A program made the position numbers and the translations under genes. Shown here one piece after another: positions 1,300 to 20,171 of a DNA stretch of 64,000 nt. Position 1 is the stretch's first letter, and every line of letters starts with the position of its first letter. Source of the DNA: Candidatus Fermentibacterota bacterium (GTDB taxonomy: Bacteria > Fermentibacterota > Fermentibacteria > Fermentibacterales > JCC-6); the NCBI GenBank assembly GCA_030609965.1, contig JAUWSQ010000001.1:105787-169786 (forward strand), read 5' to 3'. Under the pieces are notes generated by a model. It was not told the DNA's origin. It worked only from the letters and a program-made list of their open reading frames with translations, and did no database searches.

Positions 1300-1431
1300 G
1301 AGAAGCCTCCCTGTTGATTCATAATACAATAAAACTCAATGATGTTTCTTCATTGATGAAGCATATATACTTCAATGCACAGGGTAGGAATATACAATTC
1401 TGCTGCTATCAGCGTAACAGCGGCTTAAAAG

Positions 1432-1457
1432 AGGGAAGGGGCGTAAGCCCCTTCCCT
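1432..1457 (-). terminator. Rho-independent terminator downstream of the TWGSIK protein gene
   Basis: Hairpin AGGGAAGGGGC-GTAA-GCCCCTTCCCT followed by a T-run on the minus strand. Confidence 0.8.
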
Positions 1458-1481
1458 GTCAGTTCAAGTTGTGCCTGAGAC

Positions 1482-2324: not shown

Positions 2325-2434
2325 ATCTTCTCCTTTCGTTAGTACGATTCCTATTAATACAAATATTTACTACATTTACATTGAATGTCAATACTCGTTT
2401 AAGACTCTATTCGGCTTGATCACTAAACTATTAA

Positions 2435-4297: not shown

Positions 4298-4373
4298 AGA
4301 GTAAAATCCGATCTTTAATACCTTTAACTTTAAGTTGTAATTTCAAGCACAATATTTATGCTCCCGTGTACCG

Positions 4374-5156
4374 TCAATCCTCAGTATCGATAATGCCGGA
4401 GTAGATCTCGAACCCGCAGAGTTCCAGATTTTTCAAGAGTTCTTCCGGATCACCGCCCCACAGCCCCAGCTTCCGAGATATGTGCTCTGTCCAGGAGTAA
4501 CTGTCAAAATCGAATTTTTCTTCAGTACCTTCCCGAAGTGGTATCATGTAGTTAGCTTCCCTGTAGTAGTTCTGTCTGAGGTACCCTGAATCCATTTCCT
4601 CAGCGGCTTCGGATACGGCATCATCACTGAAACAAGTGTATTTGCTCTCAAACAGGTGAAATTCCATGGGATACCTGGGTCTTACAGGGGGATCTTCCGC
4701 AGGGTATCCCATTGTTAACATCACAAGAGGGAAAATCCTGTCAGGCAGTTCGTACAGTTCCCTGATCTTCTTTACCATGAATGGAGCAGCTCCGATATAG
4801 CAGCTTCCAAGCCCCAGGCTTTCCGCGGCTATCACCATGTTCTCCGCCATATAGGCGGCATCCTGGATCCCGAACAAAAGTGTATAAATGTCAGAAGCCT
4901 TTCTCTTCCAGCCCCGCCTCTCCATGATCTTTTCCATTCTGTACACATCGACACATATGGTGAAAAGAAGTGGAGCTCTGAATACATTATGCTCAATCTC
5001 CCTGGACAGGAGAACACTGCCCATCTGCATGGCGAACGGAGCCTGCTGGCCCGCACGGACAATGGTTTCGATTACTTCATCCGAAGGCTGCTCCTCACGG
5101 TATTTCCTGATCGATCTCCTATTCATCATGGCATCAATAACAGGATTACTTATCAT
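4374..5156 (-). CDS. Nitroreductase family protein (NfsA/FRP-like)
   Basis: NRRSIRKY, AAYMAENMVIAAESLGLGSCYIG and LTMGYPAE motifs; ATG 5156 preferred over GTG 5168. Confidence 0.9.
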   Translation of the reverse strand: MISNPVIDAMMNRRSIRKYREEQPSDEVIETIVRAGQQAPFAMQMGSVLLSREIEHNVFRAPLLFTICVDVYRMEKIMERRGWKRKASDIYTLLFGIQDAAYMAENMVIAAESLGLGSCYIGAAPFMVKKIRELYELPDRIFPLVMLTMGYPAEDPPVRPRYPMEFHLFESKYTCFSDDAVSEAAEEMDSGYLRQNYYREANYMIPLREGTEEKFDFDSYSWTEHISRKLGLWGGDPEELLKNLELCGFEIYSGIIDTED

Positions 5157-5358
5157 CGATTCCCTCACCTCCCCGTGTTACTTTGCATTTCAATACTACA
5201 CACACATTGAAACAGTGTCATGGTTTCCATGCTTTGTTCAGGTGAATACATAATTGATCCATGAACAGAGGGGACTTGCCCCGGATACCCTGCTGGTTTA
5301 CATTGCATGAAATTAAATGATCAGAGATTCGCAGCAGGTTAAAGCAGAGGGGTCAGGC

Positions 5359-6069
5359 ATGACATCTTCAAGTATGGTTTCCGCACTTCTATTGATCATG
5401 GCATTTCATTGTAGCTGTGGCGAAGCCTCTGGTACGGATACAGCTGATGAACAGCTGACTGAACATGAGATTACGCGGACTGCCAGTCCGGGGTTGACGC
5501 AGTGCACGCTTTCGGTCCACAGTGATCCCGAGCTATTCGAGATATCCCTCTACTGGGTTGGTCCTCCAGACGCGGCTCCGGGCTTCCGACTGGCTCACAC
5601 CCTGACGGTAGCTCCCCTTGGAGGGGACAGCATGGTCGTATTCGATGGACTGGAATCGACCTACTATGAAAACAGTGAGCTTAAGGGTTACCTTATCGGG
5701 GAGGATATGAACTTCGACGGATATACCGATTTCCGTCTGATGCAATTCCCGACTGCAGGCCCGAATACTTACTGGTATTTCTGGCTGTTCGATCCTGATA
5801 CCGGGACGTTCTTCCGCTCGATGGAATACGAGGAGAGCAGCCTTGTTTCACCAGAATTTGATCAGGACAATGAGACGATCAAAAGTTTCCATCGTGATGG
5901 AATGGGGATATACGGAACAGAATACTACTTTGTTGAGAACGGTCACCTGCTTCTTATTAGAAGTGAGCAGACAGAATTCCAGGGTCCGGATTCATTGATA
6001 ACAACAGTAAGAGAACTGATCAATGATGAAATGGTTGTAACTGAACGGAATGTTCAGAATATGGATTAA
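5359..6069 (+). CDS. Secreted XAC2610-like protein
   Basis: Signal peptide; EDMNFDGYTDF (EF-hand-like Ca motif) followed by GPNTYWYFWLFDPDTGTF. Confidence 0.65.
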   Translation: MTSSSMVSALLLIMAFHCSCGEASGTDTADEQLTEHEITRTASPGLTQCTLSVHSDPELFEISLYWVGPPDAAPGFRLAHTLTVAPLGGDSMVVFDGLESTYYENSELKGYLIGEDMNFDGYTDFRLMQFPTAGPNTYWYFWLFDPDTGTFFRSMEYEESSLVSPEFDQDNETIKSFHRDGMGIYGTEYYFVENGHLLLIRSEQTEFQGPDSLITTVRELINDEMVVTERNVQNMD

Positions 6070-6095
6070 ACACTTCACCCATCTTGGGAGGGATT

Positions 6096-6431
6096 ATGCT
6101 TGACAGGCTGAGAGAAAAGATCATCGAATTCCGTGACCTTCGTGACTGGAAGCAGTTTCACGATCCGAAGAACCTCGCGGAGGCTATATCTATTGAATCC
6201 GCAGAACTGCTCGAGAATTTCCTGTGGAAAACCTGCGATGAAGCCAAGAATCTTGATAGTGAATCCATCAATTCGATCGGCGAAGAGATAGCCGATATAG
6301 CTATATTCCTGACTATTCTCGCCCATGAACTGCACCTGGATATAGAGCAGATCGTCAATAGAAAACTGCAGCTCAACGAAAAGAGATATCCCGTTGAAAC
6401 TTCAAGGGGCAATGCTAAGAAGCATCCCTGA
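6096..6431 (+). CDS. MazG-like nucleotide pyrophosphohydrolase (dCTPase type)
   Basis: RDWKQFHDPKNLAEAISIESAELLE and EEIADIAIFL; RBS GGGAGG before ATG 6096. Confidence 0.9.
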   Translation: MLDRLREKIIEFRDLRDWKQFHDPKNLAEAISIESAELLENFLWKTCDEAKNLDSESINSIGEEIADIAIFLTILAHELHLDIEQIVNRKLQLNEKRYPVETSRGNAKKHP

Positions 6432-6451
6432 GGTTACGGAAATAGACTGCA

Positions 6452-6862
6452 TTAGACTGTAACCTGCCACTCCTCGTCGCCGATCTGGCTAAGACCTATG
6501 CCGTTGCTCAGGAGAGAATCTCTGAACCATTCAAGGGATTTTTCGAACCCGCTTAGCAGCACAACTGAGCCATCTATGGCTTTCAGTTCAAGCAGCTTTT
6601 TGTTCTTGGCATATTTACCTCTGCTTGCCTTAAGTCCCTCCAGGGGAAAGCTTACAGGATTACCTTTAACCAGCAACATGATCAGAATGCCCAGCTGCAT
6701 ATGAAAAGGAGCCATCTTGCCAAGATCGAAGTAGACGAATCTCCGATCTGTCAGAATGCATCGCGAATAAACAGGGAATTTTATCTTTTTCCCCTGCAGT
6801 GTAGATCTTTTATTATCGACAAGTACGCTTTCTCCTGGATTCAGTTCGAACTTTTTCCCCAT
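6452..6862 (-). CDS. Hypothetical protein (possible PH-like fold)
   Basis: 136-aa ORF containing CILTDRRFVY; no firm family. Confidence 0.6.
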   Translation of the reverse strand: MGKKFELNPGESVLVDNKRSTLQGKKIKFPVYSRCILTDRRFVYFDLGKMAPFHMQLGILIMLLVKGNPVSFPLEGLKASRGKYAKNKKLLELKAIDGSVVLLSGFEKSLEWFRDSLLSNGIGLSQIGDEEWQVTV

Positions 6863-7077
6863 TTCATTCCCTTTTCTGTAAAACCTCTTCGCAGACTCAT
6901 TACCAGTTGCCGGCAGGACGATATATCTTACAGTATGATTCTGTCAATACCACGATAATCCGGATTCCCCTGCAGAACTGCAATCCGCAGCAGCTGTGGT
7001 GAAAAGCGAAACTACTCCCCTTTCGCGCGAAATTGATTATTGTACCTTTTCATGGTTCAGAAACAGGAGAGTATTAA

Positions 7078-8385
7078 GTGGAAACAACATCTGACATTGT
7101 TCCCGACCTTAAGAAGGAAAACGCTCAGCTGCAACATCAGCTTAACAGCCTTGAGCTTGTATTCCGGAACGCGGTTGATATTCTGGTGGTTGTCGATGCG
7201 GCTTCAGGAACAATACAAAGGATAAGCGATGCCGTTGAAGCTGTGCTTGGTTACAAACGCTCGAACCTGATCGGCAAAAAACTGACAGAGATCCTCCCTG
7301 ATGATAAAACATCCAATCTGAAACTGCAGGACGGCATCCCAGAGATTGTTGACGGTGTATTTCTTGATCAGAAAGTGAAATGTCATGACGGCTCCTTCAA
7401 ATCAATGGATATGACCATAAGCCTCGTGAACAGTAATGATCAAAGCGTCATCCTTCTGACATTAAGGGACACCTCCCAGAGAAAACGCCACCAGGGTGAC
7501 ATGATCAAGAAGAACAGCGCACTGGACAGTGCGCTCAGTGCCATGATAATAACCAACAGTTCCTGGAAGATAGACTATGCAAATGTAGAGGCTCTGAATT
7601 ACTGGAGGTACAGCAGAACGGATATGCTGAATCTGGACATCTCGGACCTTCTTCCATACATGGGTGACTTTGACAGCCTTATGGAGTGTATGGAAGAAAG
7701 AGGTCAATGGGATGACGAAATAGAATGTCAGCGCAGGGACAGCACAACTTTCATTGCACATGCCACTGCTATTAGAGTGGATACTGATGGCGAAGAACAA
7801 TGTTATATTTTTTCATTTCTCGATATCACCAAGCGCGTCCGTCTTGAGAAAAGGCTTACGGAACTGTCTCTGCGCGACAGCCTTACAGGTCTTTATAATA
7901 GACGGGGGTTCATGACGCTGGGCAAACAGTTGCTTGATTCTTCCCTTCGGAAACAACCGGAGATCGGTCTGCTTTACGTTGACCTCGATTACCTTAAACT
8001 GTTAAACGATAAGCTGGGTCACTCGGAGGGTGACAAGGCTCTTGTAATCACTGCAAGAGTATTGAAGAGCTGCTTCCGGGATTCGGACATCATAGCCAGG
8101 CTGGGCGGGGATGAATTCGTTGTACTCTTCCTTGATACTCCGGGCCTCACCGTAGAATCCATCAGGACTCGAATAGATAGACAGCTTAAAGAAACCGTTG
8201 ACACTAAGCCTACTCCCTTCAGGTTATCCCTCAGTATAGGATATTATTCTACCGTACTGTGTTATCAAACTCAAATCGGGATGCTTCTCAGCAGTGCCGA
8301 TTCTCTCATGTACGAAGACAAGGAAAAAAGAAGAAAATCTGTCACCGAGGCTGACATACTGCTAGGGAATGATCAGCAGACCTGA
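7078..8385 (+). CDS. PAS-PAS diguanylate cyclase
   Basis: Two PAS-like repeats; DSLTGLYNRRGF; RDSD I-site and GGDEF. Confidence 0.92.
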   Translation: METTSDIVPDLKKENAQLQHQLNSLELVFRNAVDILVVVDAASGTIQRISDAVEAVLGYKRSNLIGKKLTEILPDDKTSNLKLQDGIPEIVDGVFLDQKVKCHDGSFKSMDMTISLVNSNDQSVILLTLRDTSQRKRHQGDMIKKNSALDSALSAMIITNSSWKIDYANVEALNYWRYSRTDMLNLDISDLLPYMGDFDSLMECMEERGQWDDEIECQRRDSTTFIAHATAIRVDTDGEEQCYIFSFLDITKRVRLEKRLTELSLRDSLTGLYNRRGFMTLGKQLLDSSLRKQPEIGLLYVDLDYLKLLNDKLGHSEGDKALVITARVLKSCFRDSDIIARLGGDEFVVLFLDTPGLTVESIRTRIDRQLKETVDTKPTPFRLSLSIGYYSTVLCYQTQIGMLLSSADSLMYEDKEKRRKSVTEADILLGNDQQT

Positions 8386-8402
8386 CCCCCTTCACCTGGA
8401 AC

Positions 8403-8452
8403 TTGACATAGGCAGTTAATTGGAATACGATTCCGTATTCGAATATTTGAAT
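8403..8452 (+). promoter_or_regulatory. Sigma70 promoter with overlapping ArsR-type operator
   Basis: TTGACA (8403-08), N17, TACGAT (8426-31); inverted repeat GAATACG-N4-CGTATTC (8423-40); ATTC-N8-GAAT (8437-52). Confidence 0.75.
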
Positions 8453-8474
8453 ATCCTATCAAAGGAACAATGGA

Positions 8475-8846
8475 ATGGCATCTGATAACGAACCGGACCA
8501 GGAATATTTCTATAATAATGCTGACCTGCTCAGAGCTATGGCTCACCCGGTAAGGCTTATGATTATGGACGAGCTGCTGCGGAATCCCAGATGTGTTAGT
8601 GCCATCCATGAGATACTCGATGTCCGGCAGCCCAACATATCCCAGCACCTTACAATTCTGAAGAATTCCGGAATAGTTGCCTCGGACCGGGACGGCTCCT
8701 ACAGATGCTACTACCTTCGAAGACCCGGTCTTGTCAAAGCTGTTCTGGAAACACTGAAGAAGGACTGGCCGGAAGCGCAAATAGAAAATGTCAGAGGTAA
8801 ATTCAAACGGGCGCTGAAAAAGCGCCTGGACAAACTGGGAAAATAA
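8475..8846 (+). CDS. ArsR/SmtB family transcriptional repressor
   Basis: AMAHPVRLMI...QPNISQHLTILKNSGIV HTH. Confidence 0.9.
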   Translation: MASDNEPDQEYFYNNADLLRAMAHPVRLMIMDELLRNPRCVSAIHEILDVRQPNISQHLTILKNSGIVASDRDGSYRCYYLRRPGLVKAVLETLKKDWPEAQIENVRGKFKRALKKRLDKLGK

Positions 8847-8866
8847 CCCCGGAAGGAGACTCTTTT

Positions 8867-9220
8867 ATGGGTAAAGTAGCTTTAATCTGCAACGGTTCTG
8901 AAAAATCAAATATCTATCCTGCATTCGTTCTTGCTTCCTCGGCCGTTGCATCAGGTGACGATGTATTAATTTTCTTCACACCTGAAGCGGTTCCAGCCCT
9001 GAAACCAGGTATTCTGGAGGGCATGACAGGAAAAGGTATGCCTGATATGAAGGATCTTCTTGAGGGGTTTATGGCTCTCGGCGGACGCATGATGCTGTGC
9101 GAACTGGGGCTGGAAGCACATGATGTTACAGCTGAAGGCCTGAGGGACGATATCAATATAGGTGGAGCAACCACCTTCATGGCTGAAATTCAGGACGCGA
9201 AAACAACATTCTCATTCTAA
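8867..9220 (+). CDS. DsrE/DsrF-like sulfur carrier
   Basis: FVLASSAVASGDDVLIFFT...MMLCELGLE; DsrE fold with one Cys. Confidence 0.8.
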   Translation: MGKVALICNGSEKSNIYPAFVLASSAVASGDDVLIFFTPEAVPALKPGILEGMTGKGMPDMKDLLEGFMALGGRMMLCELGLEAHDVTAEGLRDDINIGGATTFMAEIQDAKTTFSF

Positions 9221-9238
9221 TACGGAAGGAACAATAAA

Positions 9239-9463
9239 ATGGCTTCAATAGTACTCGACGCACTAGGAATGAAATGCCCCCAGCCGATACTGAAAATAGC
9301 TATAAAGGCCAAAGAACTGCAGCCTGGCGACATGCTGGAGGTTCTCGCGGACTGCCCCTCTTTCCCGGTTGACATAAAAGCCTGGTGCGAGCGAACAGGG
9401 AAGACCCTTCTGTTCTGCGCCACTGAAGGAGACGGCAAGCACAAAGCACAAGTTCAGTTCTAA
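9239..9463 (+). CDS. tusA: TusA/SirA family sulfurtransferase
   Basis: LDALGMKCPQP signature; 74 aa. Confidence 0.85.
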   Translation: MASIVLDALGMKCPQPILKIAIKAKELQPGDMLEVLADCPSFPVDIKAWCERTGKTLLFCATEGDGKHKAQVQF

Positions 9464-9473
9464 CAGCTGGTCA

Positions 9474-9905
9474 GTGGCGATAATGAAGGATTTCGAACCA
9501 CGTATCATAGGATTTCTCTGTAACTGGTGCTCCTATGCGGGGGCAGACCTTGCCGGTACAAGCAGGCTGAAAATGCCTCCGAACCTGGTTCCGATAAAGG
9601 TCATGTGTTCCAGCAGAGTTGACCCCGAAATGGTGACAGATGCCTTTCTCCGCGGTGCGGACGGTGTGCTTATAGCCGGGTGTCACCCGGGTGACTGCCA
9701 CTACGACAAGGGAAATTATTATGCAAGGCGAAGATTCGCGGTACTGAAGAAGGTAGTCGAAAGCCTGGGTCTTGAAGCGGAAAGGTTACGCCTCTCCTGG
9801 ATTTCCGCCTCTGAGGGAGCCCGGTTTCAGCAGGTCGTTGAGGAGTTCACCGAGAATATAAGGAAGATGGGCCCGAATCCTACCGGGAAGGAAACTCTTC
9901 TATAG
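9474..9905 (+). CDS. mvhD: MvhD/FlpD [2Fe-2S] subunit
   Basis: GFLCNWCSYAGADLAG, MCSSRVDP, GCHPGDCHY (Cys, not Sec). Confidence 0.92.
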   Translation: MAIMKDFEPRIIGFLCNWCSYAGADLAGTSRLKMPPNLVPIKVMCSSRVDPEMVTDAFLRGADGVLIAGCHPGDCHYDKGNYYARRRFAVLKKVVESLGLEAERLRLSWISASEGARFQQVVEEFTENIRKMGPNPTGKETLL

Positions 9906-11185
9906 TGGCTGCCGACGTTCTCGTTATAGGGGCCGGGGTTGCTGGAATGAAGGCTTCACTCCTTCTGGCCTCGTCCGGAAGGCGAGTTCATCTGATCGAG
10001 AACTCTTCCGTAATCGGCGGCAGGCTCATCCGCTGTGAGGATATATTCCCCGCGATGGAATGCGCTACCTGTATGGTCTCACCCATGCAGCAGGACGTTC
10101 TCCGGAACGATCTCATCAATGTAGTTACACTGGCGGATATACTCTCCATTGAAGGTTCAATCGGAGATTTCCGGGTAAGGATACGTAAGCAGGCATCATG
10201 CGTAGATCCCGTAGCATGCATCGGCTGTGCCGAATGCTGGAATGCCTGCCCGGTCGAGATCAACAATGAATTCGAAGAAAACCTGTCGAAAAGAAAGGCC
10301 ATCTCAGTTCCCTGCGCAGGAGCCCTGCCGAATGTCCCCTGGATTGACAGGGAACACTGCCTCAGATGGAACGGCGATGAAAACTGCAGCCTGTGCGCTG
10401 AAGCATGTGTTTTCGCTGCGGTAGATTATACTGAGGTAGATTCGGAGTTCGAGATAACCGTATCCGATATAATACTGTCGACAGGCTATCAGCCTTCTCC
10501 CGGAGATATGATTGACAAATTCCAGTGGGGAATCTGTACCGGTGTTTTCACCGCATCGGAGTTCGAGCGGTACTACTCCTCGAACGGACCCACATCCGGA
10601 GAACTGATAACAAAGGATGGGCGCAAACCCGAGTCAGCGGCGATAATAGTTCACGCATTCGGCACGGGCAGTCACTCAAGCATTAATACAATGTACTCTT
10701 TAAAATTCCTTCATTACCTGAATGAAAAACTCCCGGATATCAGGCCTATTGTATTTCTTGATGCGGAATATGAGCCGGTTGCCCTTGAGGACAGGAACCA
10801 CCAGAAATGGCTGGCTGCAGAAGCTGATGTTGTTCTTTGCACACAGATCCCTGAGGTTCATACGGTCGGTGACAGTAATAATCTGAGTATTACCTGCACC
10901 ACGGCTGAAGGCAGCTTTCAGGCGGAGGCTGACCTGCTTGTACTCGGTACATCGATGCAGCCTTCATCGGGAACTTCAAAATTCATCAAGCTGCTTGGCA
11001 TTGAGTGCAGTAATGATGGATTTGCCGCTAAACCTGAACCAGGGCTTTCATCGGTAATAACTTCTGTCCCGGGGATATATGCCGCGGGATGCAGCGGTGG
11101 TCCGCTTGACATAGCTTCTTCTGTCACAGAAGCCGCTGCCGCGGTCGGCAGGGTGCTGTCGGATACGAACAGAGGAGGTAACTAG
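9905..11185 (+). CDS. HdrA-like flavoprotein with inserted 2x[4Fe-4S] domain
   Basis: GAGVAG FAD motif, FPAMECATC, CIGCAECWNACP, CSLCAEAC, GIYAAG. Confidence 0.85.
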   Translation: MAADVLVIGAGVAGMKASLLLASSGRRVHLIENSSVIGGRLIRCEDIFPAMECATCMVSPMQQDVLRNDLINVVTLADILSIEGSIGDFRVRIRKQASCVDPVACIGCAECWNACPVEINNEFEENLSKRKAISVPCAGALPNVPWIDREHCLRWNGDENCSLCAEACVFAAVDYTEVDSEFEITVSDIILSTGYQPSPGDMIDKFQWGICTGVFTASEFERYYSSNGPTSGELITKDGRKPESAAIIVHAFGTGSHSSINTMYSLKFLHYLNEKLPDIRPIVFLDAEYEPVALEDRNHQKWLAAEADVVLCTQIPEVHTVGDSNNLSITCTTAEGSFQAEADLLVLGTSMQPSSGTSKFIKLLGIECSNDGFAAKPEPGLSSVITSVPGIYAAGCSGGPLDIASSVTEAAAAVGRVLSDTNRGGN

Positions 11186-12396
11186 TGCCTTCTACCAGAA
11201 CCGGTGTTTTCGTCTGCAGCTGCGGCCCTAATATCGGTGACAGGATCGATATCGAGAAAATAGCAGACGAAGTTTCCAGTATCGACGGTGTAGTGCTTGC
11301 GGAAACTCACGGTTTACTCTGCTCCCCCGACGGGAAGAAATACCTGGCGTCCAGAATAACCGAATACAAGCTCGAGAGAGTAGTCATTGCAGCCTGTTCT
11401 CCACGAGAGCACGAAATAACCTTCATGAAGGTCTGCGAAACGGCAGGACTCAACCCTTTCATGATGCAGATGGCGAACATTCGTGAGCAGGTGGCATGGG
11501 TTACACCAGACAGAAATTCCGCAACGGAAAAAGCTCTCAGACTTGTACGGGGTGCCATAAACAGGACCACCCGCCATAAACCCCTTATGAAGACAAGCAT
11601 CGTATGCAACCCCGAAGTAGCGGTAATAGGCGGTGGAATATCAGGTATGTCTGCTGCTATTGTTCTTGCGGATGCAAACAGAAAAATAACGATCATAGAG
11701 AGAAAATCTTCACTGGGCGGCTATCCGGAGAATGAAAAACTTGTAGAACACCTTAAGGATACCGTAACAGGACGTACAGAAATTACTGTTATAACCGATC
11801 GTGAACCTGAGGAAATTGTCGGTTTCTTCGGAAATTTCATTATTAACCTCGGTGAAGGCACCGATGAACTGCGGGCAGGATCAATAGTACTCGCTACCGG
11901 GTGCTCAGTTGAACAAAGCGGCAGAGCTGTCGCTTCCGAAGGCTTCAGAAGAATGACTGAAATGCTTAGAATCTCAACCGATGAGTATGGTTTCCCGAAC
12001 CGTGAGCATGATTCCCTCGCGCCGGTATCGACTCTGGTCGGCGGTGTATATGTCACCGGATGTGCTGGAGGGTTCTGCAGTCTGAGGGAGGCCGTATCAC
12101 AATCGGAAGCGGTGGCAGGTACAATCCTCTCCTCTCTGATCCCTGGCAGGGAAGTCGAAACCGAACCGAGAACATCTGTTATTTCAGAAACACTCTGCCG
12201 AGGATGTAAAACCTGTCTGGAAGTTTGCGGTTACGGAGCAATTTCCTTTGATGAGGAAAGGCTTGTCTGTTCAGTGAACAGTGTTCTGTGTAAAGGGTGC
12301 GGTAACTGCGCAGCAGCATGCCCCTCCGGGGCTATCAAAGCTCAGCATTTCACACCTGATCAGATCCGCTACCAGATGGCGGGGCTTCTGAGATGA
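11185..12396 (+). CDS. HdrA-like protein (N-terminal cluster domain, FAD motif, C-terminal ferredoxin), internally shortened
   Basis: VFVCSCG..LCS..AACSP..NIREQ; GGGISG; CRGCKTCLEVC and CKGCGNCAAACP. Confidence 0.85.
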   Translation: MPSTRTGVFVCSCGPNIGDRIDIEKIADEVSSIDGVVLAETHGLLCSPDGKKYLASRITEYKLERVVIAACSPREHEITFMKVCETAGLNPFMMQMANIREQVAWVTPDRNSATEKALRLVRGAINRTTRHKPLMKTSIVCNPEVAVIGGGISGMSAAIVLADANRKITIIERKSSLGGYPENEKLVEHLKDTVTGRTEITVITDREPEEIVGFFGNFIINLGEGTDELRAGSIVLATGCSVEQSGRAVASEGFRRMTEMLRISTDEYGFPNREHDSLAPVSTLVGGVYVTGCAGGFCSLREAVSQSEAVAGTILSSLIPGREVETEPRTSVISETLCRGCKTCLEVCGYGAISFDEERLVCSVNSVLCKGCGNCAAACPSGAIKAQHFTPDQIRYQMAGLLR

Positions 12397-13424
12397 ACTC
12401 CATACTGAAAGATTTACTGAGAAAAGCTCTGGACAACGGTATTGTCAGTTCAGTGATGGTTCCATCAAAGGGACCCGGGAATTCTTTCCCCTGGACTCTG
12501 GTAAGTGATGTTTCCGCACTGCAGCGGGCTGAACCTGTTCCTCCTGTCATGTCCGTTCAGGGAGCAAAAGCACTGGCCTCCTTCACTCAATCTATGCCGG
12601 AGGGGAAGCTCCTGGCTGTTATGCGTCCATGTGAAGCCAGAGCTGCAGTAGAGCTTTCAAAACTTGAACAGATCGATCTCGACAACATCATCCTTCTCAC
12701 CATGGACTGCCCGGGTGCAGTCCCCCTTGGGGAGTATGGCGAGGATGGAATAACGGAACCTGACATCAATGATCCTGCAACCCTTCGTCCCCTCTGCAGG
12801 CAGTGTACTGGTTTCACCTCAGCGGGTGATCTGTGCCTTGCCATGCACGGAGGTCTAAATGCGGTGCTTCCCCTGACCGCCAGTGGACAGGAACTCCTCG
12901 ATTCTCTTGGATTTAAGGCGGAAGCGGACATATCAGGATGGGAAGAATGGGCGAACGCCCAAAGGGGGGAGCGTCAAGTAACCAGGGTCGAGAATATGGA
13001 GAATTTGAAGGAAGCATACAGCGGCCTGCAGGGCCTGATCGAAGTTTTCAGTGGATGCATCTCCTGCCGCAGCTGCAGAACGGTATGCCCGATCTGTTAC
13101 TGCAGACTCTGTTTCATCGACATGAAAGACAGACGATCTCCAGCTTCTGAACATCTTGAACGGTCCCGTAACGGTGGTGCGGCAAGGCTTATGTCGAATA
13201 CACTTCTTTTCCATATCGGCAGGATGGCACACATGAGCCTTTCATGTGTATCGTGCGGAATGTGCGAGGATGCCTGTCCTTCGGATATCCCGATCGGCAG
13301 GCTCATAAGCATGGTTTCTGCTGATACTACGGCTGTTTTTAATTACAGCGCCGGGAGTAACCCTGAAGATCCACTGCCCCTGAATACTTTTCTCCCGGAA
13401 GAACTACATGAATACGAAGACTGA
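12393..13424 (+). CDS. FdhB/FlxB-like (FrhB-family) 4Fe-4S protein
   Basis: AVMRPCEARA; CISCRSCRTVCPICYC; GRMAHMSLSCVSCGMCEDACP. Confidence 0.85.
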   Translation: MNSILKDLLRKALDNGIVSSVMVPSKGPGNSFPWTLVSDVSALQRAEPVPPVMSVQGAKALASFTQSMPEGKLLAVMRPCEARAAVELSKLEQIDLDNIILLTMDCPGAVPLGEYGEDGITEPDINDPATLRPLCRQCTGFTSAGDLCLAMHGGLNAVLPLTASGQELLDSLGFKAEADISGWEEWANAQRGERQVTRVENMENLKEAYSGLQGLIEVFSGCISCRSCRTVCPICYCRLCFIDMKDRRSPASEHLERSRNGGAARLMSNTLLFHIGRMAHMSLSCVSCGMCEDACPSDIPIGRLISMVSADTTAVFNYSAGSNPEDPLPLNTFLPEELHEYED

Positions 13425-13457
13425 TAACCTGCATCTGATCCCGGGAGGTGGTTTTTG

Positions 13458-14546
13458 TTGCAGAACAGTATACTGATATCCAAATAAGAAACCCGGGATA
13501 CTCTGAGACATTTACTGTGTGAACTTCTTGAGAACGGTGAGGTTGATTCAGTTTTTGCTCTCCGGGAAACCAGACAGAAGGGTAGATACTGCTATTCTCT
13601 CATATCCGATCCTTCTCTGATCGGCGAAGTGCTGCCTTTCCATCCTGTTATGCCTGTGCAGGGAGCCCGTGCCCTTTCGGACCTGACCATTACTGAACCT
13701 CTCAACCGCCCTGTTGCCGCGCTTCTGAGACCCTGCGAGATCCGGGCTTTTGTAGAGAATGTGAAGCAGACACAGGGAAACCTGGAGAATATTTTCATTA
13801 TCAGCTGCACATGCCCGGGTGTGATACCGGCATCAAAATTGCTCAGGGAAGACCGTGAAGAAATTCTAAAGAATCATTCTGAAAATATCAGAAACTCATG
13901 CGGGGCATGTCTCGAATTCGTTCCCGGGCAGCAGGCGGATATGACTGTTCTTGTTGCTTCGGATGAACCGCACAAGGGCACTGTCATTTATCTGCATACG
14001 GAAAAGGCTGTCGAAATTGCGGAAAAACTCGATTCCTGCACCCTGGAAACAGGTAAGCCTCCTGCTGAACTCACATCTGGAATCCTTGAAGCTAGAAAAA
14101 AAGCTCTGAAGGATCTGATGAGGGATATTCCAGCACCGGGGGATGGCCTGCAATCACTTGTATCGCTTTTCTCAGCATGCATAGGATGCCGCGGATGCAG
14201 AGAAGCGTGCCCATTATGCAGCTGCATTCTCTGTGATTATGAAACTGCCCGTACCCTGCATTCCCCTGAACTGGTCCGGACTGAGGCGAAACGGAAAGGA
14301 TCAATAAGGGTACCGGCGGGAACCCTCCAGTTCCAGCTCGGCAGGCTTATGCATATTTCACCCATATGCACATCATGCGGTCAGTGTAGTGATGTATGCC
14401 CAGTGGATATTCCTGTAGCTGACATATTTATCAGGGCGGCAAATCTGGTCCAGGAATCACTTGACTACGCCCCCGGCAGAGACACAGATGATACCCCCCC
14501 CATGGCAACTTATGTAGAGAAGGAGCTGCCTTCCATAACCGACTGA
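13458..14546 (+). pseudogene. Second FdhB/FlxB-like paralog, interrupted by in-frame TAA at 13485-87 (or a shorter CDS from GTG 13629)
   Basis: RBS GGAGGTG, then TTG 13458 LQNSILISK*ETRDTLRHLLCELLENGEV, aligning with the N-terminus of the upstream paralog; LLRPCEIRA; CIGCRGCREACP; CTSCGQCSDVCP. Confidence 0.6.
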
Positions 14547-14550
14547 TCTA

Positions 14551-14985
14551 TTACCTGCCTGGAGCTTCCAGCAAACAGTCGTAAGGCGCCATGTAGTAAT
14601 CCCCGAGAAGATCTTCAGGGTCTCCCTCAGCTTCAAGAGAATCCTTCCACTGGAAGTAGGATCTGGTGGTTGTGCTTACTCCGATGACGCGGAAGATGCG
14701 CATCATACCGCCGCTTTCCGGTATGTAGCTGTCGGCTTCTTCGATCTCAAGAATAACCCTTTCTCCAACGTATAATGTAAGGAAATAATCCATAAGAGGA
14801 TCAGTGGACCAGAAGGACTTAACATCTCCGTTCTCATCGCGAATGACCGGATGAATGTAGTCCCCGACTTCGTAGCCAAGGAAAATACCAACTACAGTTG
14901 AAGAATCGTACACTACATTGGGCGAAAACTCAAAGTCATCAGCAACAACACCCGTTAAAACAGCGATCATAAATACCAGGCTCAA
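14551..14985 (-). CDS. Secreted hypothetical protein
   Basis: 144 aa, short hydrophobic N-terminus, RBS GGGGAGG. Confidence 0.6.
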   Translation of the reverse strand: MSLVFMIAVLTGVVADDFEFSPNVVYDSSTVVGIFLGYEVGDYIHPVIRDENGDVKSFWSTDPLMDYFLTLYVGERVILEIEEADSYIPESGGMMRIFRVIGVSTTTRSYFQWKDSLEAEGDPEDLLGDYYMAPYDCLLEAPGR

Positions 14986-15232
14986 ATTTAACCTCCCCCC
15001 TGTTTGTGAGACTATCTGATACTATACAAACTTAATATTACTTCAGAATAGAGTCTTCGCAATGGGCTCAAGCATTACATTTTGGAAGATTGAGGATATC
15101 CCTGTCTTCCAGATCAATCTTATGACTTGTTCAAAAACATCTATCTGCGTATTATTTGTTCCTGATTATTCTCTATATTTTGTTCAATATCAGTATTAAA
15201 TCTTGAATATTAACTGTTGGAATGGGGATATA

Positions 15233-16600
15233 ATGAAATCATACGATGTTATTATCATTGGAGCCGGTCCCTCAGGAATTGTTGCGGGTATTACATCCAG
15301 AAAGCGAAATCCTGACAAGTCGTTTCTAATGATAATGGAAGAAGAAAAAGGACTTGTTCCATGCGGGATTCCTTACATCTTCCATGATCTTGAAGATATA
15401 TCACAGAACAGCATGGGACCTGCGCCATTTGTAAACGCGGGTGGCGAGGTCCTGATTGATACGGTAACCAATATCGATATCGGGAGTAAAGTTCTTCAGA
15501 CCGAGTCTGGAAAAAGTATTTCTTACGGCAAACTTGTCTTTGCGACGGGTTCAACTCCAATTATTCCGATTTTTATCAAGGGTTACGATCTGGAGAATGT
15601 TGAATACATCGCAAAGAGCTACAAATACATCAATGGGCTTATGGATCGGATAAGATCAGCGGTGAATATTGTTGTTATAGGAGGAGGGTTCATAGGTGCC
15701 GAAGTAGCTGAACAGCTTGCGAAGCACAGAGACAAGAATGTAACGCTGATCGAAAAGGAAAATCACTGTCTGTACCGTGCTTTCTCAGCTGATTTCGCAA
15801 CCCTTGCTGACAAGCATCTCAGGAATGCCGGAGTCAATGTATTGACAGGCTGTACTGTTAAGGAACTGGAAGGGAGCAGCGGGAAAATTGAGTCCGTGCT
15901 ACTGGTAGATGGAAGATCAATCAAGGCTGACCTTGTCATCTCCGCAATTGGATACAAACCATGTACTGAGCTTGCAGCCAGGGCGGGTCTTCATCTAACA
16001 AGTAACGGTACCATCAGAGTTGACAAGTATATGAGAACTGAAGAGCAGGACGTATACGCGATTGGTGATTGTTCCCAGACTTCCGGTTTTATTACAGGCA
16101 GAACGGACAATATTATGCTGGCCTCAACGGCTACGGCGGAAGCCAGAATTCTTGGTAACAATCTCTTCAGTATTAGTCTGCTTCGAACTTTTTCAGGCAC
16201 TCTATCAGTGTTTTCCACAGAACTCGATGGTTATGTATTCGCTTCTGCAGGAGCAATTGAACAATCAGCCCTTGAAGCGAACGTGGATTACGTGGTGGGA
16301 AGATTCGAAGATGTTGACCGTCATCCCGGTTCACTGCCTGGTGCGAAGAAGATAATAATCAAAATAATCGTCTCCCCTGAAAACGGTGAGATAATCGGAG
16401 GGGAGATCTACGGCGGTAAATCCGTGGGAGAGATGATAAATATCATCGGTCTCGCAATTCAGAAATACGTTACAATCTACGAGATGATATCTTTTCAGAC
16501 CGGAACGCATCCCCTGCTAACCACTGCACCCACAAAGTATGCACTGGTCAAGGCTTGCGAAAATGCCATTTCAAATATCGAAAAGCAGGCTGGAAAATAG
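15233..16600 (+). CDS. FAD-dependent pyridine nucleotide-disulfide oxidoreductase (NADH oxidase/CoA-disulfide reductase family)
   Basis: GAGPSG; single redox Cys in VPCGIPY; GGGFIG; YAIGDC; C-terminal GTHP. Confidence 0.88.
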   Translation: MKSYDVIIIGAGPSGIVAGITSRKRNPDKSFLMIMEEEKGLVPCGIPYIFHDLEDISQNSMGPAPFVNAGGEVLIDTVTNIDIGSKVLQTESGKSISYGKLVFATGSTPIIPIFIKGYDLENVEYIAKSYKYINGLMDRIRSAVNIVVIGGGFIGAEVAEQLAKHRDKNVTLIEKENHCLYRAFSADFATLADKHLRNAGVNVLTGCTVKELEGSSGKIESVLLVDGRSIKADLVISAIGYKPCTELAARAGLHLTSNGTIRVDKYMRTEEQDVYAIGDCSQTSGFITGRTDNIMLASTATAEARILGNNLFSISLLRTFSGTLSVFSTELDGYVFASAGAIEQSALEANVDYVVGRFEDVDRHPGSLPGAKKIIIKIIVSPENGEIIGGEIYGGKSVGEMINIIGLAIQKYVTIYEMISFQTGTHPLLTTAPTKYALVKACENAISNIEKQAGK

Positions 16601-16662: not shown

Positions 16663-17991
16663 TTATGACAGATTCTCAATGAGGGAGTCTCCGAATATCT
16701 TGAGCATTTTCTCCATTTCATTCTTCCCTGTAACCAGGGGAGGCCACAGGTAAAGCACTGAACCCAGTGGACGGATGAAAAGCCCCTTCCCGTGGGCAGT
16801 ATCGGCAATCGCAAGAGCGGTTGCAGCGCCGCCGCTCTCTTCGCCTATCTCCAGTGCGCTCATGCACCCAAGAGCTGTGGATCCGTGAACCCCCGGAATA
16901 CTCCTGTACATATCGAATGCTTCCGTGAGCATTTCTGAAAGCATCTCGACGTTACCAAGGATATTATCCCTTTCATATACCTCTATGGCGGCGCATGCCG
17001 CAGCTGCAGCTATAGGATTACCGCAGAATGTGTGTCCATGATAGAAGGTTCTGTCTATCTGTGAATCACTTCTGAACGCATCGTAAATCTTCTCGGATGC
17101 AACTACGGCGCTCATTGGAAGAGCCCCCCCGGTAAGTCCCTTTCCAATGCACATCATGTCCGGCACTACTCCTGCAAGTTCAGAGGCGAACATTCTTCCG
17201 GTACGGCCGAATCCTACCGCAATTTCATCCAGAATAAGGAGCACTTCGTTCTCATCACACAATTTTTTCAATCGCGAAAGATATAGGGGAGGATAGATCC
17301 TCATACCCGCCGCACCCTGACATACAGGCTCCACAATCACAGCGGCGGTGCAATCCGCGTTTTCAACTACTGCCTTCTCCATGGAGGCAAAGCACTCCAG
17401 TCCGCAGTTTTCAGGCTTCCCGTGGTATCTGCAGTGAAAGCAATGCGGCGATTCAGCTGTTATTGACCTTCTCAGAACCTGCTCCACCGACTTATGAAAC
17501 CTGTTTATGTACCCCAGCCCCGCACAGCCGAGAGTATCGCCGTGGTACCCGCCGGAGAGAGATATCATCTTTCTCTTTTCCGGTCTTCCCCGGTTCCACC
17601 AGTACTGCAATGATATCCGCATTGCAGCTTCCACCGAACAGGCTCCGTCCGATGCGTAGTAGACTCTTGACAGGTTCCCGGGTGCGATGGTGGCTATCTT
17701 CTCAGATAGTCTGATTACCTCCGTATGTGACATACCGCCTGTGATCGAGTTCTGAAGCCTGCCCGACTGTTTCCTGATTGCATCTATGATATCAGGGTGG
17801 CTGTGTCCCAGATTCACGCACCACCAGGAACTGATCCCGTCAAGCAGCATGTTCCCATCTGTATCCACCAGGTATACGCCTTCAGCCTTTTCAATTACAG
17901 GGAACTCACTCCGTTCAAAAGAATTGATATCGGTATATGGATGCCAGAAATGACTGATATCCTTCCTTCGAAGGCTCTCCGTTCTGTTCAT
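16663..17991 (-). CDS. bioA: Adenosylmethionine-8-amino-7-oxononanoate aminotransferase
   Basis: FWHPYT, DGISSWW, GYHGDT, DEIAVGFGRTG, CIGKGLTGG. Confidence 0.95.
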   Translation of the reverse strand: MNRTESLRRKDISHFWHPYTDINSFERSEFPVIEKAEGVYLVDTDGNMLLDGISSWWCVNLGHSHPDIIDAIRKQSGRLQNSITGGMSHTEVIRLSEKIATIAPGNLSRVYYASDGACSVEAAMRISLQYWWNRGRPEKRKMISLSGGYHGDTLGCAGLGYINRFHKSVEQVLRRSITAESPHCFHCRYHGKPENCGLECFASMEKAVVENADCTAAVIVEPVCQGAAGMRIYPPLYLSRLKKLCDENEVLLILDEIAVGFGRTGRMFASELAGVVPDMMCIGKGLTGGALPMSAVVASEKIYDAFRSDSQIDRTFYHGHTFCGNPIAAAAACAAIEVYERDNILGNVEMLSEMLTEAFDMYRSIPGVHGSTALGCMSALEIGEESGGAATALAIADTAHGKGLFIRPLGSVLYLWPPLVTGKNEMEKMLKIFGDSLIENLS

Positions 17992-18707
17992 GGAAACTCC
18001 ATGATGCGGAGGCTTAATCCTGACATGCTTTCCATGAAAGACGGATTCCTTACTGATTCTTCGGGATTTCGCATATGCGGGATCTCCATCACCCGGACTG
18101 ATCCTCCGTATAAAGCTATAGCGCGGGGATTATCAATTGTAACCACTGAAATTTTCTCTGTAAGGTGGTTTACAACTACAGCTGCAATCTGCAGTCCGGC
18201 ATTTCTCAGAACCGCAAGTGACAGCAGGGAATGATTGATTGTACCCAGGTCTCCTCTGGCAACCAGAATTACCGGCCAGCTCAATTCAACCATAAGATCC
18301 AGCATTTTCTCGCTGTTGTTAAGCGGCACCAGAACCCCTCCAGCACCCTCGGCAACAATGAAATTGCAACTGTCATACAATTGGTTCATCTTTCCAATAA
18401 TAGCTTCTACATCAGGATGAACACCCGTCATCCTGCCAGCGAGATGAGGTGAACACGCGGGGCTGTATCGGAATGGACACATCAGATCCATAAGAGGCTC
18501 GCCTGGCTCAAGATCCGAAACTCTCAGGCTGAATTCGAGATCAGGCGCCGAGAGTATTCCATCGATCTCAAGGCACCCTGTCTGAACAGGTTTGACTGGA
18601 AGAGCGGATATTCCGCTATCTCTGAAGGCTTTCAGAAGACCGGCCGCAACCACTGTTTTTCCAACACCGGTGCCTGTACCAGTTACGAAAACCCCCCGAG
18701 TGTTCAC
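17988..18707 (-). CDS. bioD: Dethiobiotin synthase
   Basis: VTGTGTGVGKT, VKPVQTG, EGAGG, GTINHSLL. Confidence 0.95.
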   Translation of the reverse strand: MNTRGVFVTGTGTGVGKTVVAAGLLKAFRDSGISALPVKPVQTGCLEIDGILSAPDLEFSLRVSDLEPGEPLMDLMCPFRYSPACSPHLAGRMTGVHPDVEAIIGKMNQLYDSCNFIVAEGAGGVLVPLNNSEKMLDLMVELSWPVILVARGDLGTINHSLLSLAVLRNAGLQIAAVVVNHLTEKISVVTIDNPRAIALYGGSVRVMEIPHMRNPEESVRNPSFMESMSGLSLRIMEFP

Positions 18708-19510
18708 ATCTTCCTTCCGAGAATGTACAGAATTCTATACGTTGAAGAAACTTTTCCGGAGCTGTCCACTTCAAAATGCCTGCGATAGTACTTCGTCATC
18801 TTCTTCATGTCTCCGGGTTTCAGAAATGCCGGGTCCTGATCGATTCCGGCTCCAATTCCTCTTATTGCCTTCAGTACTTCAAGCGGATGATCGTATAAGC
18901 AGGAAACACTTTCAACAGAACTGGACAGGATATCCATTCCGCTGTTCTCAAACCGGGTTTTCCATTCCTCTCCGGAACTCAGATCAAGCCGACGCATCAA
19001 CGTATCAGCTCCCAGGATACAGCTTTCCACAAGCTCATGCAGCATCCCGCGAACAGGGATAGCCATGAGACACAATCCACCAGCCGGAAGCGAGGCGTAT
19101 ATGCTTTCAACAAAACGTTTTCTATAATGAAACCACTGAATTGAGCAGCTTGATACCACAAGATCGTATCTGTTTCCACTTTGGCAGTACTTTTCGGCAT
19201 CGGTAACCAGGAAGGATAAGCGCCCGGTATTGTTCAGTTTGAACCTGCAGCGGTCAACCATGCCAATGGAAATATCCAGTGCAGTCACAAAGGAAGAAGA
19301 AAAGCGATCAAGCAGCTTTTCCGTGAGGATTCCTGTACCGCAGCCGATTTCAAGGATCGATCCCAGGGCCGCGTTCGGGAGTATAAAATCCATGAGTCTA
19401 TCTGCAATTAGCCTGTGATGATCCGCATACCTGTCGTACAGAATGGCTGCTTTCGAGAAATTGTGCTCAACGGCTGTCTTATCGGGCAATGCAATATTCA
19501 CTGAATTCAT
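18704..19510 (-). CDS. bioC: Malonyl-ACP O-methyltransferase
   Basis: NFSKAAILYD, LEIGCGTG; position in the bio operon. Confidence 0.88.
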   Translation of the reverse strand: MNSVNIALPDKTAVEHNFSKAAILYDRYADHHRLIADRLMDFILPNAALGSILEIGCGTGILTEKLLDRFSSSFVTALDISIGMVDRCRFKLNNTGRLSFLVTDAEKYCQSGNRYDLVVSSCSIQWFHYRKRFVESIYASLPAGGLCLMAIPVRGMLHELVESCILGADTLMRRLDLSSGEEWKTRFENSGMDILSSSVESVSCLYDHPLEVLKAIRGIGAGIDQDPAFLKPGDMKKMTKYYRRHFEVDSSGKVSSTYRILYILGRKM

Positions 19511-20171
19511 TCAGCAGTTCCCCCACTATTTCTGGTTTTACAACAGGCAGGAGATGTCCTGCCTTCTCTATGTACACCACTCGCGAATTATCAGCATTAT
19601 GCCTGCTGATGTATTCACTGCACATCCAGGGGATTACGTTGTCATCTCTGCCATGAACCAGCATCAATGGAGCTTCACAGGTAAGCCCGGCTTCCGTATC
19701 AGACATATAATCCAGCCCTGACAATAGAGTGTTCATGGTGATGGAATCGGATTCTTCCAGCAGATTCCCAATGATCCGAGGATCTGCAATCGGAAAGAGG
19801 CACTGCGTGAAAAAAGCTCTCAGATATACTTTTCTGTTCCGCTTCAGCATAACTTTTATCTTATGCGGCGTTTGCCTGGGTACTCCCGGTCTTCCTTCGC
19901 GTTCAACAAGGCAGGCCATAGATGACACAAGGAATAGACCGGCAATACTACCGGGATTACAGGCCGCTGCCTGTAGCGCTATCTGTCCTCCCATTGACCA
20001 GCCGGCCACAATGCACCTTTCAGGATTTTTCGCTATTCTCCTGTCCAGATCACCATCGATCGCTTTCCGCCAGTCAACTTCTTCGACATCCAGTTTGTTC
20101 GTAAGAACTTTCAAAACAGGTTTCCAGACACTCCTCCTCGTTGCCCAGCCCGATAAAAGATAAAGTTTCAT
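19479..20171 (-). CDS. bioH: Pimeloyl-ACP methyl ester esterase (BioH-like)
   Basis: SGWA, GWSMGG nucleophile, HGRDD, AGHLLP; lies between bioF and bioC. Confidence 0.8.
   Translation of the reverse strand: MKLYLLSGWATRRSVWKPVLKVLTNKLDVEEVDWRKAIDGDLDRRIAKNPERCIVAGWSMGGQIALQAAACNPGSIAGLFLVSSMACLVEREGRPGVPRQTPHKIKVMLKRNRKVYLRAFFTQCLFPIADPRIIGNLLEESDSITMNTLLSGLDYMSDTEAGLTCEAPLMLVHGRDDNVIPWMCSEYISRHNADNSRVVYIEKAGHLLPVVKPEIVGELLNEFSEYCIAR

Follow-up and report, generated by a model that had tools for sequence, protein, structure and literature searches.

The window analysed here is a stretch of 64,000 nucleotides from a Candidatus Fermentibacterota bacterium (GenBank assembly GCA_030609965.1, contig JAUWSQ010000001.1, positions 105,787 to 169,786 of the forward strand). 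It contains an eight-gene operon at 8475–14546 (plus strand) that encodes an ArsR-type protein, the sulfur carriers DsrE and TusA, an MvhD-type subunit, two HdrA paralogues and two FdhB/ElpB-like iron–sulfur (Fe–S) proteins. The closest homologues bear the names Candidatus Aegiribacteria or Candidatus Fermentibacteria. The original prediction, made from the letters of the window, described a tightly coupled operon of seven genes from dsrE onward that lacks hdrB, hdrC and any hydrogenase gene. All seven genes are on the plus strand where they had been placed, and the intergenic spacings of 18, 10, −1, −1, −4 and 33 bases from DsrE to the last gene bear out the coupling. The absence of hdrB, hdrC and a hydrogenase gene from the operon also held, and no CCG-domain (HdrB-type) protein is encoded in the operon or on the contig. 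The start lies one gene earlier than predicted, at an ArsR-family gene that ends 20 bases before dsrE and has a promoter-like site and a candidate operator of its own. The features of the operon are as follows.

8403–8431, plus strand: promoter-like site TTGACA, 17 bases, TACGAT (sigma-70-like), found by a promoter scan 5′ of the ArsR-type gene
8437–8452, plus strand: ATTC-N8-GAAT palindrome, candidate operator, found by palindrome and pattern searches, 3′ of or overlapping the −10 region
8475–8846, plus strand: ArsR/SmtB-family repressor (PF01022, 1.3e-13; NF033788, 77 bits, over the cut-off)
8867–9220, plus strand: DsrE-family sulfur carrier, 117 amino acids, soluble (PF13686, 4.7e-12, 46.6 bits, over the cut-off)
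9239–9463, plus strand: TusA sulfur carrier, 74 amino acids (PF01206, 3.9e-18, 65.5 bits versus a cut-off of 28.6)
9474–9905, plus strand: MvhD-type [2Fe-2S] electron-transfer subunit (PF02662, 4.1e-55; VhuD model, 1.2e-35)
9905–11185, plus strand: HdrAc, the “core” HdrA paralogue, 426 amino acids (aligned to residues 146–562 of 5odc_A, E 3e-62)
11185–12396, plus strand: HdrAn, the “N/C” HdrA paralogue, 403 amino acids (alignments to 8rvu_a and 5odc_A; multiple alignment with the versions of other phyla)
12393–13424, plus strand: FdhB1, FdhB/ElpB-like Fe–S protein 1, 343 amino acids (phmmer match to 9t1s_M, 1.2e-26; also to 8rvu_E and 7bkb_E)
13458–14546, plus strand: FdhB2, FdhB/ElpB-like Fe–S protein 2, a paralogue of FdhB1 (phmmer match to 9t1s_M, 1.5e-25; TTG start behind a GGGAGG site)

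The two sulfur carriers have the cysteines expected of their families. In the alignment, TusA has an invariant Cys13 in a G-L-K-C-P-Q-P motif (CPxP) and a second invariant cysteine, Cys39. Its identity across phyla is the highest of all cassette proteins: the median identity of the window proteins to their counterparts in other phyla is 69% for TusA, 67% for MvhD, 51% for DsrE, 43% for both HdrAc and HdrAn, 40% for FdhB1 and 36% for FdhB2. The conservation of TusA on a par with MvhD fits a protein that contacts the complex. Cys78 of the DsrE-family protein is invariant in 15 sequences from several phyla. The nearest solved structure to this protein is 2qs7_A (E 0.48), and the DsrE2 model (subgroups DsrE2–5) scored 37 bits against a cut-off of 210. 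DsrC was considered as the acceptor of TusA sulfur and set aside; it was not found in the assembly (80.7% complete), and the usual Dsr acceptor is therefore not evident.

The complete order ArsR-DsrE-TusA-MvhD-HdrAc-HdrAn-FdhB1-FdhB2 was found in eight loci of the genus with sufficient flanking sequence, including that of Candidatus Aegiribacteria MLS_C, with protein identities of 51–99%. Three further loci of the genus show the same order, broken only by the contig end, and additional Fermentibacteria loci also have the full cassette order. For a cross-phylum scan, loci were collected by HdrAc alignment with one genome per species, which gave 80 loci, 61 of them usable outside Fermentibacteria. 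Since the loci were chosen by HdrAc alone, the carrier counts are not circular. The counts for the non-Fermentibacteria loci with sufficient flank are given below.

MvhD upstream of HdrAc: 51 of 51 loci
TusA upstream of HdrAc: 44 of 51 loci
DsrE upstream of HdrAc: 40 of 51 loci
Second HdrA downstream of HdrAc: 48 of 48 loci
Both FdhB paralogues downstream of HdrAc: 44 of 48 loci
Trailing second MvhD: 30 of 48 loci

The hosts are Thermoplasmata, Dehalococcoidia, Aminicenantes, Cloacimonadota, WOR-3, Aerophobetes, Armatimonadota, Clostridia and Deltaproteobacteria bins. A lack of conservation of dsrE and tusA as neighbours of the redox genes had been set beforehand as a refutation of the predicted module; the pair proved to be syntenic through the genus and in more than 10 phyla. 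Peculiar to the window are an HdrA pair without the cysteines of the thioredoxin-reductase domain, the lack of a trailing MvhD gene, the ArsR gene at the head of the operon and an early stop in FdhB2.

A canonical HdrA holds four domains in one protein, namely an N-terminal, a thioredoxin-reductase, an inserted ferredoxin and a C-terminal ferredoxin domain; in the operon they are shared out between two genes. HdrAc consists of the thioredoxin-reductase-type flavin adenine dinucleotide (FAD) domain and the inserted ferredoxin domain, without an N-terminal domain and without a C-terminal ferredoxin domain; it keeps equivalents of Cys194 and Cys197 of 5odc_A in C53 and C56. HdrAn consists of the N-terminal Fe–S domain, a minimal FAD-binding domain and the C-terminal 2×[4Fe-4S] ferredoxin domain, with the Cys194/197 stretch and the inserted ferredoxin domain deleted. 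The HdrAn proteins of other phyla are about 560 residues long and have a middle domain bearing a C...C..CC motif; in Aegiribacteria this entire domain of about 170 residues is gone. The structural model of HdrAn (predicted local distance difference test score, pLDDT, 78) shows that a compact FAD-binding domain is still predicted: residues 140–325 superpose on HdrA cores (8rwn_A, Z 27.1, root-mean-square deviation of 1.6 Å for 183 residues) and, with Z ~20, on thioredoxin-reductase FAD domains. The GxGxxG motif and related glycine positions of HdrAn are invariant.

HdrAc homologues of other phyla have the four-Cys motif of the thioredoxin-reductase domain, which is replaced in all Fermentibacteria-type copies (13 homologues compared); neither HdrA paralogue of Aegiribacteria has the cysteines of this cluster. 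Their role as cluster ligands is read from the alignment and is thus putative. According to a figure legend in PMC9012536, the thioredoxin-reductase-domain cluster of methanogen HdrA leads electrons to HdrBC. The loss of the cluster cysteines from HdrAc and of the middle domain from HdrAn fits an enzyme that no longer feeds HdrBC. The reduced forms of HdrAc and HdrAn are common to all members of the genus, with identities of 54–87% and intact reading frames. The Fermentibacteria-type HdrAc copies also have an extra conserved cysteine at residue 44 (I-R-C-E-D), nine residues before the Cys194 equivalent, where other phyla have F or Y; its gain coincides with the loss of the four-Cys motif.

For the tandem HdrAs of anaerobic methanotrophic archaea (ANME; HdrA5/6 and HdrA12/13), a heterodimer was proposed from the complementary pattern of the two proteins (PMC9012536). 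The adjacent HdrAc and HdrAn show the same complementarity of N-terminal domain and Cys197 as HdrA5/6: one paralogue has Cys197 and no N-terminal domain, the C-terminal ferredoxin domain is complementary too, and FdhB-like and MvhD genes lie nearby. The two proteins fit this asymmetric-heterodimer pattern and may form such a complex. Unlike the ANME pairs, they are found in a bacterium and, as related pairs, in many phyla that do not cycle methane, they are fixed beside DsrE and TusA, and both paralogues of the genus lack the thioredoxin-reductase-domain cluster cysteines.

Both FdhB-like proteins match, in sequence, beta subunits of the Fdh–Hdr and Elp–Hdr complexes of methanogens (9t1s_M; also 8rvu_E and 7bkb_E), and they are 33% identical to each other. 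FdhB1 has an FrhB-family N-terminal part and a Cys-rich C-terminal dicluster part, with 12 of its 17 cysteines invariant in the family. Its model (pLDDT 81; predicted template modelling score 0.83) superposed best in Foldseek on ElpB/FdhB (8rvu_E and 7bkb_E, template modelling score 0.75) and more weakly on FrhB, the beta subunit of Pyrococcus sulfhydrogenase I, Fsr and HCAR. In Pfam, the window copies gave 4Fe-4S dicluster matches only, with the FrhB_FdhB domains undetected; PF04432 was seen in 24 of the 30 family members taken from other genomes and was missed in the window copy. Hence the family assignment is based on the matches to solved structures and on the fold, which together uphold the predicted FdhB-like identity. 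No molybdopterin-oxidoreductase-type protein, such as an FdhA or truncated ElpA partner, was found among the operon genes. F420H2 is oxidised by ElpB and FdhB, which contain FAD and four [4Fe-4S] clusters (PMC12350162). CofD (TIGR01819), a marker of F420 biosynthesis, was not found in 26 genomes of the genus, 15 of them at least 90% complete. A protein of about 230 amino acids, encoded in 21 of these 26 genomes, gives a weak, half-length match (33–42 bits) to PF01996, the F420 ligase family (CofE-like). F420 was rejected as an unlikely substrate of the FdhB-like proteins, given the missing CofD and the weak, half-length PF01996 matches.

The FdhB2 gene contains an in-frame TAA at 13485–13487, its codon 10, where four close orthologues read TCA; the orthologues are uninterrupted, with 363–374 amino acids. 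The next canonical start, GTG 13629, would cost about 57 codons counted from TTG 13458, including about 45 conserved residues. The remainder of FdhB2 is intact and 83–85% identical to the nearest orthologues. The TAA may reflect a true nonsense mutation, variation in the population or an error in the assembly. Reading through the region before the last gene by selenocysteine or another code was rejected, as the stop is TAA and the orthologues have TCA.

In overall composition, the operon resembles the ElpABC-HdrABC and FdhAB-MvhD-HdrABC complexes of methanogens (PDB 8RVU/8RVY, 9T1S and 7BKB; PMC12350162), with which it shares MvhD, an HdrA flavoprotein and FdhB/ElpB-type cluster proteins. It differs from them in the lack of HdrB/HdrC and FdhA/ElpA in the operon, in an HdrA split in two, in two FdhB-like paralogues instead of one, in a genus where CofD was not found, and in the sulfur carriers and repressor encoded with it. 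Of the parts of a canonical HdrABC(-MvhAGD) system, the operon has the MvhD-type subunit, while an HdrB with two CCG domains and an HdrC are not encoded alongside its HdrA genes.

The ArsR-type protein at the head of the operon has two cysteines that are invariant in the alignment, C40 (“RCV”) and C78 (“RCY”); the latter lies in the beta-wing, and there is no cysteine beyond residue 78. With the persulfide-responsive repressors SqrR, BigR and YgaV (PMC9774250) it shares the ArsR fold, the “CV” position in helix 3 of its first cysteine and an ATTC-N8-GAAT box over the promoter. The second conserved cysteine is in the beta-wing here and in the C-terminal helix in those proteins; in SqrR/BigR-type sensors, the cysteines of helix 2/3 and of the C-terminal helix are joined by a polysulfide bridge. 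Identity as a BigR/SqrR equivalog was rejected, because the BigR model gave 55.6 bits against a cut-off of 155 and C78 is in the wing and not in the last helix. The protein is reasonably regarded as a candidate thiol or persulfide sensor that would act as a thiol- or persulfide-responsive switch. ATTC-N8-GAAT is the deduced recognition site of SqrR (PMC9774250). The box is kept in three orthologous promoters. The pattern by itself is not rare in the window (3 found versus 2.4 expected), and the weight of the box comes from its position and conservation and not from the rarity of the pattern. The palindrome at 8437–8452 is likely the operator of the ArsR-type repressor.

The lack of HdrBC claimed by the original prediction applies to the operon and not to the organism. 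Another contig of the assembly (C12) holds the sole CCG-domain protein found and a second MvhD, in a canonical locus with the order hdrC, hdrB, hdrA (651 amino acids, full length), mvhD, an Fe–S protein, an FAD_binding_2 flavoprotein, mvhG and mvhA. In this locus (129–8789 of the extracted region L005, minus strand), the Fe–S protein has 247 amino acids, the FAD_binding_2 protein is of the fumarate-reductase type with 565 amino acids, and a hydrogenase maturation protease gene lies upstream.

We consider it plausible, at a probability of roughly 0.45, that the operon encodes a soluble complex, induced by persulfide, for the reduction of TusA/DsrE-borne sulfane sulfur by a putative mechanism. 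In the following scheme we infer that the proteins assemble, what the substrate and the donor are, which way electrons flow and what the repressor senses. A soluble iron–sulfur flavoprotein complex would be built on the asymmetric HdrAc/HdrAn heterodimer, with HdrAc as the source of the flavin and the inserted ferredoxin domain. The flavin site would be wired to the inserted ferredoxin domain via the N-terminal cluster, which HdrAc C56 would complete. The same site would be wired via the ferredoxin domain at the C terminus to MvhD and the two FdhB/ElpB-like cluster proteins, which would form a second electron arm. Electrons would pass between cytoplasmic low-potential carriers (ferredoxin from fermentation and possibly a second donor) and sulfane sulfur, which would be handed from Cys78 of DsrE to Cys13 of TusA and then freed as H2S. 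Expression would probably be induced by persulfide or polysulfide via the two-Cys ArsR-type repressor on its SqrR-like operator. The net role would be that of a cytoplasmic carrier-persulfide reductase for which HdrBC is not required.

Carrier-bound sulfane sulfur is suggested as the substrate because TusA and DsrE are fixed members of the cassette, are highly conserved and have intact cysteines, and because the repressor resembles a sensor. In keeping with this, two YeeE/YedE-type transporter loci and a metallo-beta-lactamase–rhodanese gene are located 10–19 kb upstream of the operon, outside the window on the same contig. Candidatus Aegiribacteria was described from the sulfide- and polysulfide-rich hypolimnion and sediment of a lake and is presumed to ferment (PMC4846661). 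With hosts that ferment and live in sulfidic habitats, we favour reduction of the sulfur to H2S by electrons from ferredoxin.

Several observations weigh against carrier-persulfide reduction. No catalytic site for cleavage of an S–S bond or persulfide was identified in the operon proteins. In the known Hdr enzymes, the disulfide is cleaved by the non-cubane clusters of HdrB, and those clusters are absent here. TusA and DsrE are also used for biosynthetic sulfur transfer. F420, the substrate of the closest solved FdhB-like relatives, is unlikely to be the donor, and the second FdhB-like gene of the assembly has its early in-frame stop. About one-fifth of the loci from other phyla have an HdrB- or HdrC-like gene within 10 kb, and about 80% have none. 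In five Cloacimonadota-type loci, DsrE and TusA are absent and hdrC-hdrB-hdrA-mvhD lies directly upstream of MvhD-HdrAc-HdrAn-FdhB-FdhB. Many Aegiribacteria genomes have a second, paralogous cassette without DsrE and TusA (L029, 6294–17032; also L030–L035), so the core module can occur without carriers. Finally, the source assembly is a 2.62-Mb bin of 81 contigs with 80.7% completeness, and absences are therefore provisional. The second cassette has the order MvhD-HdrAc′ (434 amino acids)-HdrAn′ (572 amino acids)-FdhB1′-FdhB2′-MvhD-HdrA fusion (~1020 amino acids)-MvhD-FdhB-like (321 amino acids), sometimes with a small ArsR gene upstream; it was not found in the source assembly at its 80.7% completeness.

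The HdrB-like genes of other loci and of contig C12 lead to a different explanation, which we regard as unlikely, in which the cassette is an electron-input or -output arm, like ElpABC or FdhAB-MvhD, that partners the HdrABC of C12, and the HdrB of that complex handles TusA/DsrE-bound sulfur or another disulfide. The genome does encode a complete hdrC-hdrB-hdrA-mvhD...mvhG-mvhA locus, the FdhB-like subunits are closest to ElpB/FdhB, which dock on Hdr via MvhD (PMC12350162), and hdrCBA-mvhD stands directly 5′ of the module in the Cloacimonadota-type loci; in two loci (L086 and L112), hdrCBA, dsrE-tusA and the module are all within one array. Against such a partnership, HdrB- or HdrC-like genes are missing from the surroundings (10 kb) of about 80% of the cassettes of other phyla, the canonical locus has an MvhD and a hydrogenase of its own, and the cassette brings its own HdrA pair, which in the genus lacks the cysteines and the domain of the cluster that joins the flavin to HdrC. 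Proteins of the TusA family are known sulfur donors in cofactor and tRNA thiolation pathways. It is conceivable on this ground, though improbable, that TusA and DsrE are maturation factors that give sulfur for Fe–S clusters or a special cofactor, and that the true substrates are free of sulfur, as in ferredoxin/NAD(P)H transhydrogenation. The many clusters expected in the complex from the Cys motifs and the occurrence of paralogous cassettes without carriers would agree with this. Dedicated maturation factors are, however, seldom the most conserved genes of an operon, as TusA is here; a thiol-sensor-like repressor with an SqrR-type box heads the operon; and equally cluster-rich canonical Hdr/Mvh loci, including that of this genome, have no such carriers.

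The direction of the reaction and the integrity of the operon bear on two other readings. The known precedent for TusA and DsrE proteins feeding an Hdr-like complex, the sHdr-LbpA system with its TusA/DsrE3 cascade, is oxidative (PMC11094781); in the same manner, the complex could draw sulfane sulfur from TusA/DsrE, with ferredoxin or NAD(P)+ as the electron acceptor. The two systems are alike in the genetic tie of TusA and DsrE-family carriers to an Hdr-type flavoprotein system. The sHdr system, found in sulfur oxidisers, has HdrB1, HdrB2, HdrC1, HdrC2 and lipoate-binding proteins, whereas the operon has no HdrB or HdrC paralogue and no lipoate-binding protein; neither a CCG domain nor a glycine-cleavage-H-type domain was found in its proteins. 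Conversely, the MvhD and FdhB-like subunits of the operon are not part of sHdr. Moreover, the hosts are presumed fermenters in sulfidic anoxic settings, and the oxidation of sulfane sulfur to reduce low-potential carriers would be energetically unfavourable without a strong acceptor. The oxidative direction is the least probable of the alternatives. Decay of the operon to a non-functional state in this genome, with the FdhB2 stop and the reduced HdrA pair as signs of loss, has a small chance of being correct. The TAA at codon 10 instead of TCA, and the conserved residues lost on a restart at GTG 13629, are what such decay would leave. The reduced HdrAc and HdrAn are nevertheless found with intact frames in all genus members, which indicates a state that is old and has been maintained; apart from the stop, FdhB2 is intact and close to its orthologues, and the stop is a single C-to-A difference in a metagenome bin that may be an assembly or population variant. 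Reduction of carrier-bound sulfane sulfur is our preferred reading.

Two flanking genes on the same strand were compared with the operon.

7078–8385, plus strand: PAS-PAS-GGDEF diguanylate cyclase (Pfam GGDEF, 1e-35, and PAS domains)
15203–16600, plus strand: CoA-disulfide-reductase/NADH-oxidase-class flavoprotein (PF07992, 1.5e-59; single active-site Cys motif V-P-C-G-I-P-Y)

The PAS-PAS-GGDEF gene, which is probably outside the operon, is the 5′ neighbour of the ArsR gene in most loci of the genus with sufficient flank, and this kept position may be a hint that cyclic-di-GMP signalling is connected with the operon. The CoA-disulfide-reductase-class gene, whose product had been named as a possible electron acceptor, turned out to be a loose neighbour and no fixed partner of the cassette. 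It is separated from the last Fe–S gene by 0.65 kb, its product scored 218 bits with CoA-disulfide reductase models (cut-off 458), and the only cassettes with such a gene beside them are those of one close relative within the genus and of three Thermoplasmata loci. A biotin synthesis-type cluster follows at 16663–20171 (minus strand), with a class-III aminotransferase (BioA-like), a dethiobiotin synthetase-like AAA_26 protein, a methyltransferase (BioC-like) and an alpha/beta hydrolase (BioH-like).

The sulfur-handling neighbourhood upstream of the window (4944–7587 and 13389–14579 of the extracted region L120) comprises a YeeE/YedE-type transporter of 396 amino acids, a split YeeE-like pair of 234 and 247 amino acids and a metallo-beta-lactamase protein with two rhodanese domains. 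An open reading frame of 75 amino acids beside the upstream YeeE-like gene was tried as a TusA candidate and rejected, as it is not TusA-like. The pairing of TusA with a DsrE-like protein and the YeeE/YedE-type transporters on the same contig recall the YTD (YedE-TusA-DsrE) clusters that have been proposed for sulfur disproportionation (PMC12998232). In contrast to those clusters, the transporters are 10–19 kb away and outside the operon, no conserved hypothetical YTD partners were seen, and the carriers are fused into a redox operon.

A broader hypothesis, which is possible though on balance doubtful, is that the cassette represents an unrecognised class of cytoplasmic sulfur reductase that is HdrBC-independent, based on an HdrA heterodimer and possibly electron-bifurcating. 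Its “heterodisulfide” would be a persulfide or an intramolecular di- or trisulfide of the two-cysteine TusA, and gene transfer would have carried the class into many uncultured anaerobes, both bacterial and archaeal. In that case, the form seen in Aegiribacteria would be a naturally minimal one, with the high-potential substrate reacting near the HdrAc flavin since the HdrBC branch has been lost. We found no description of the TusA/DsrE/HdrA/MvhD/FdhB gene combination in the searchable open literature, a coverage that is limited in that subscription journals lie outside it.

Hdr-type flavoproteins are widespread in non-methanogenic anaerobes, where their physiological substrates are largely unknown. 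The fixed position of TusA and DsrE beside an HdrA pair without HdrBC offers a concrete and testable candidate substrate outside methanogens, namely carrier-bound sulfane sulfur. Among the abundant uncultured lineages that have the cassette are Aegiribacteria, Dehalococcoidia, Aminicenantes, Thermoplasmata and Cloacimonadota. If the proposed function is true, it would add a soluble route of sulfur reduction or reactive-sulfur removal to the sulfur cycling of sediments and digesters, and would be an example of the re-wiring of a bifurcating HdrA module. With its fewer clusters and smaller subunits, the reduced Aegiribacteria form is attractive for expression and structural work.

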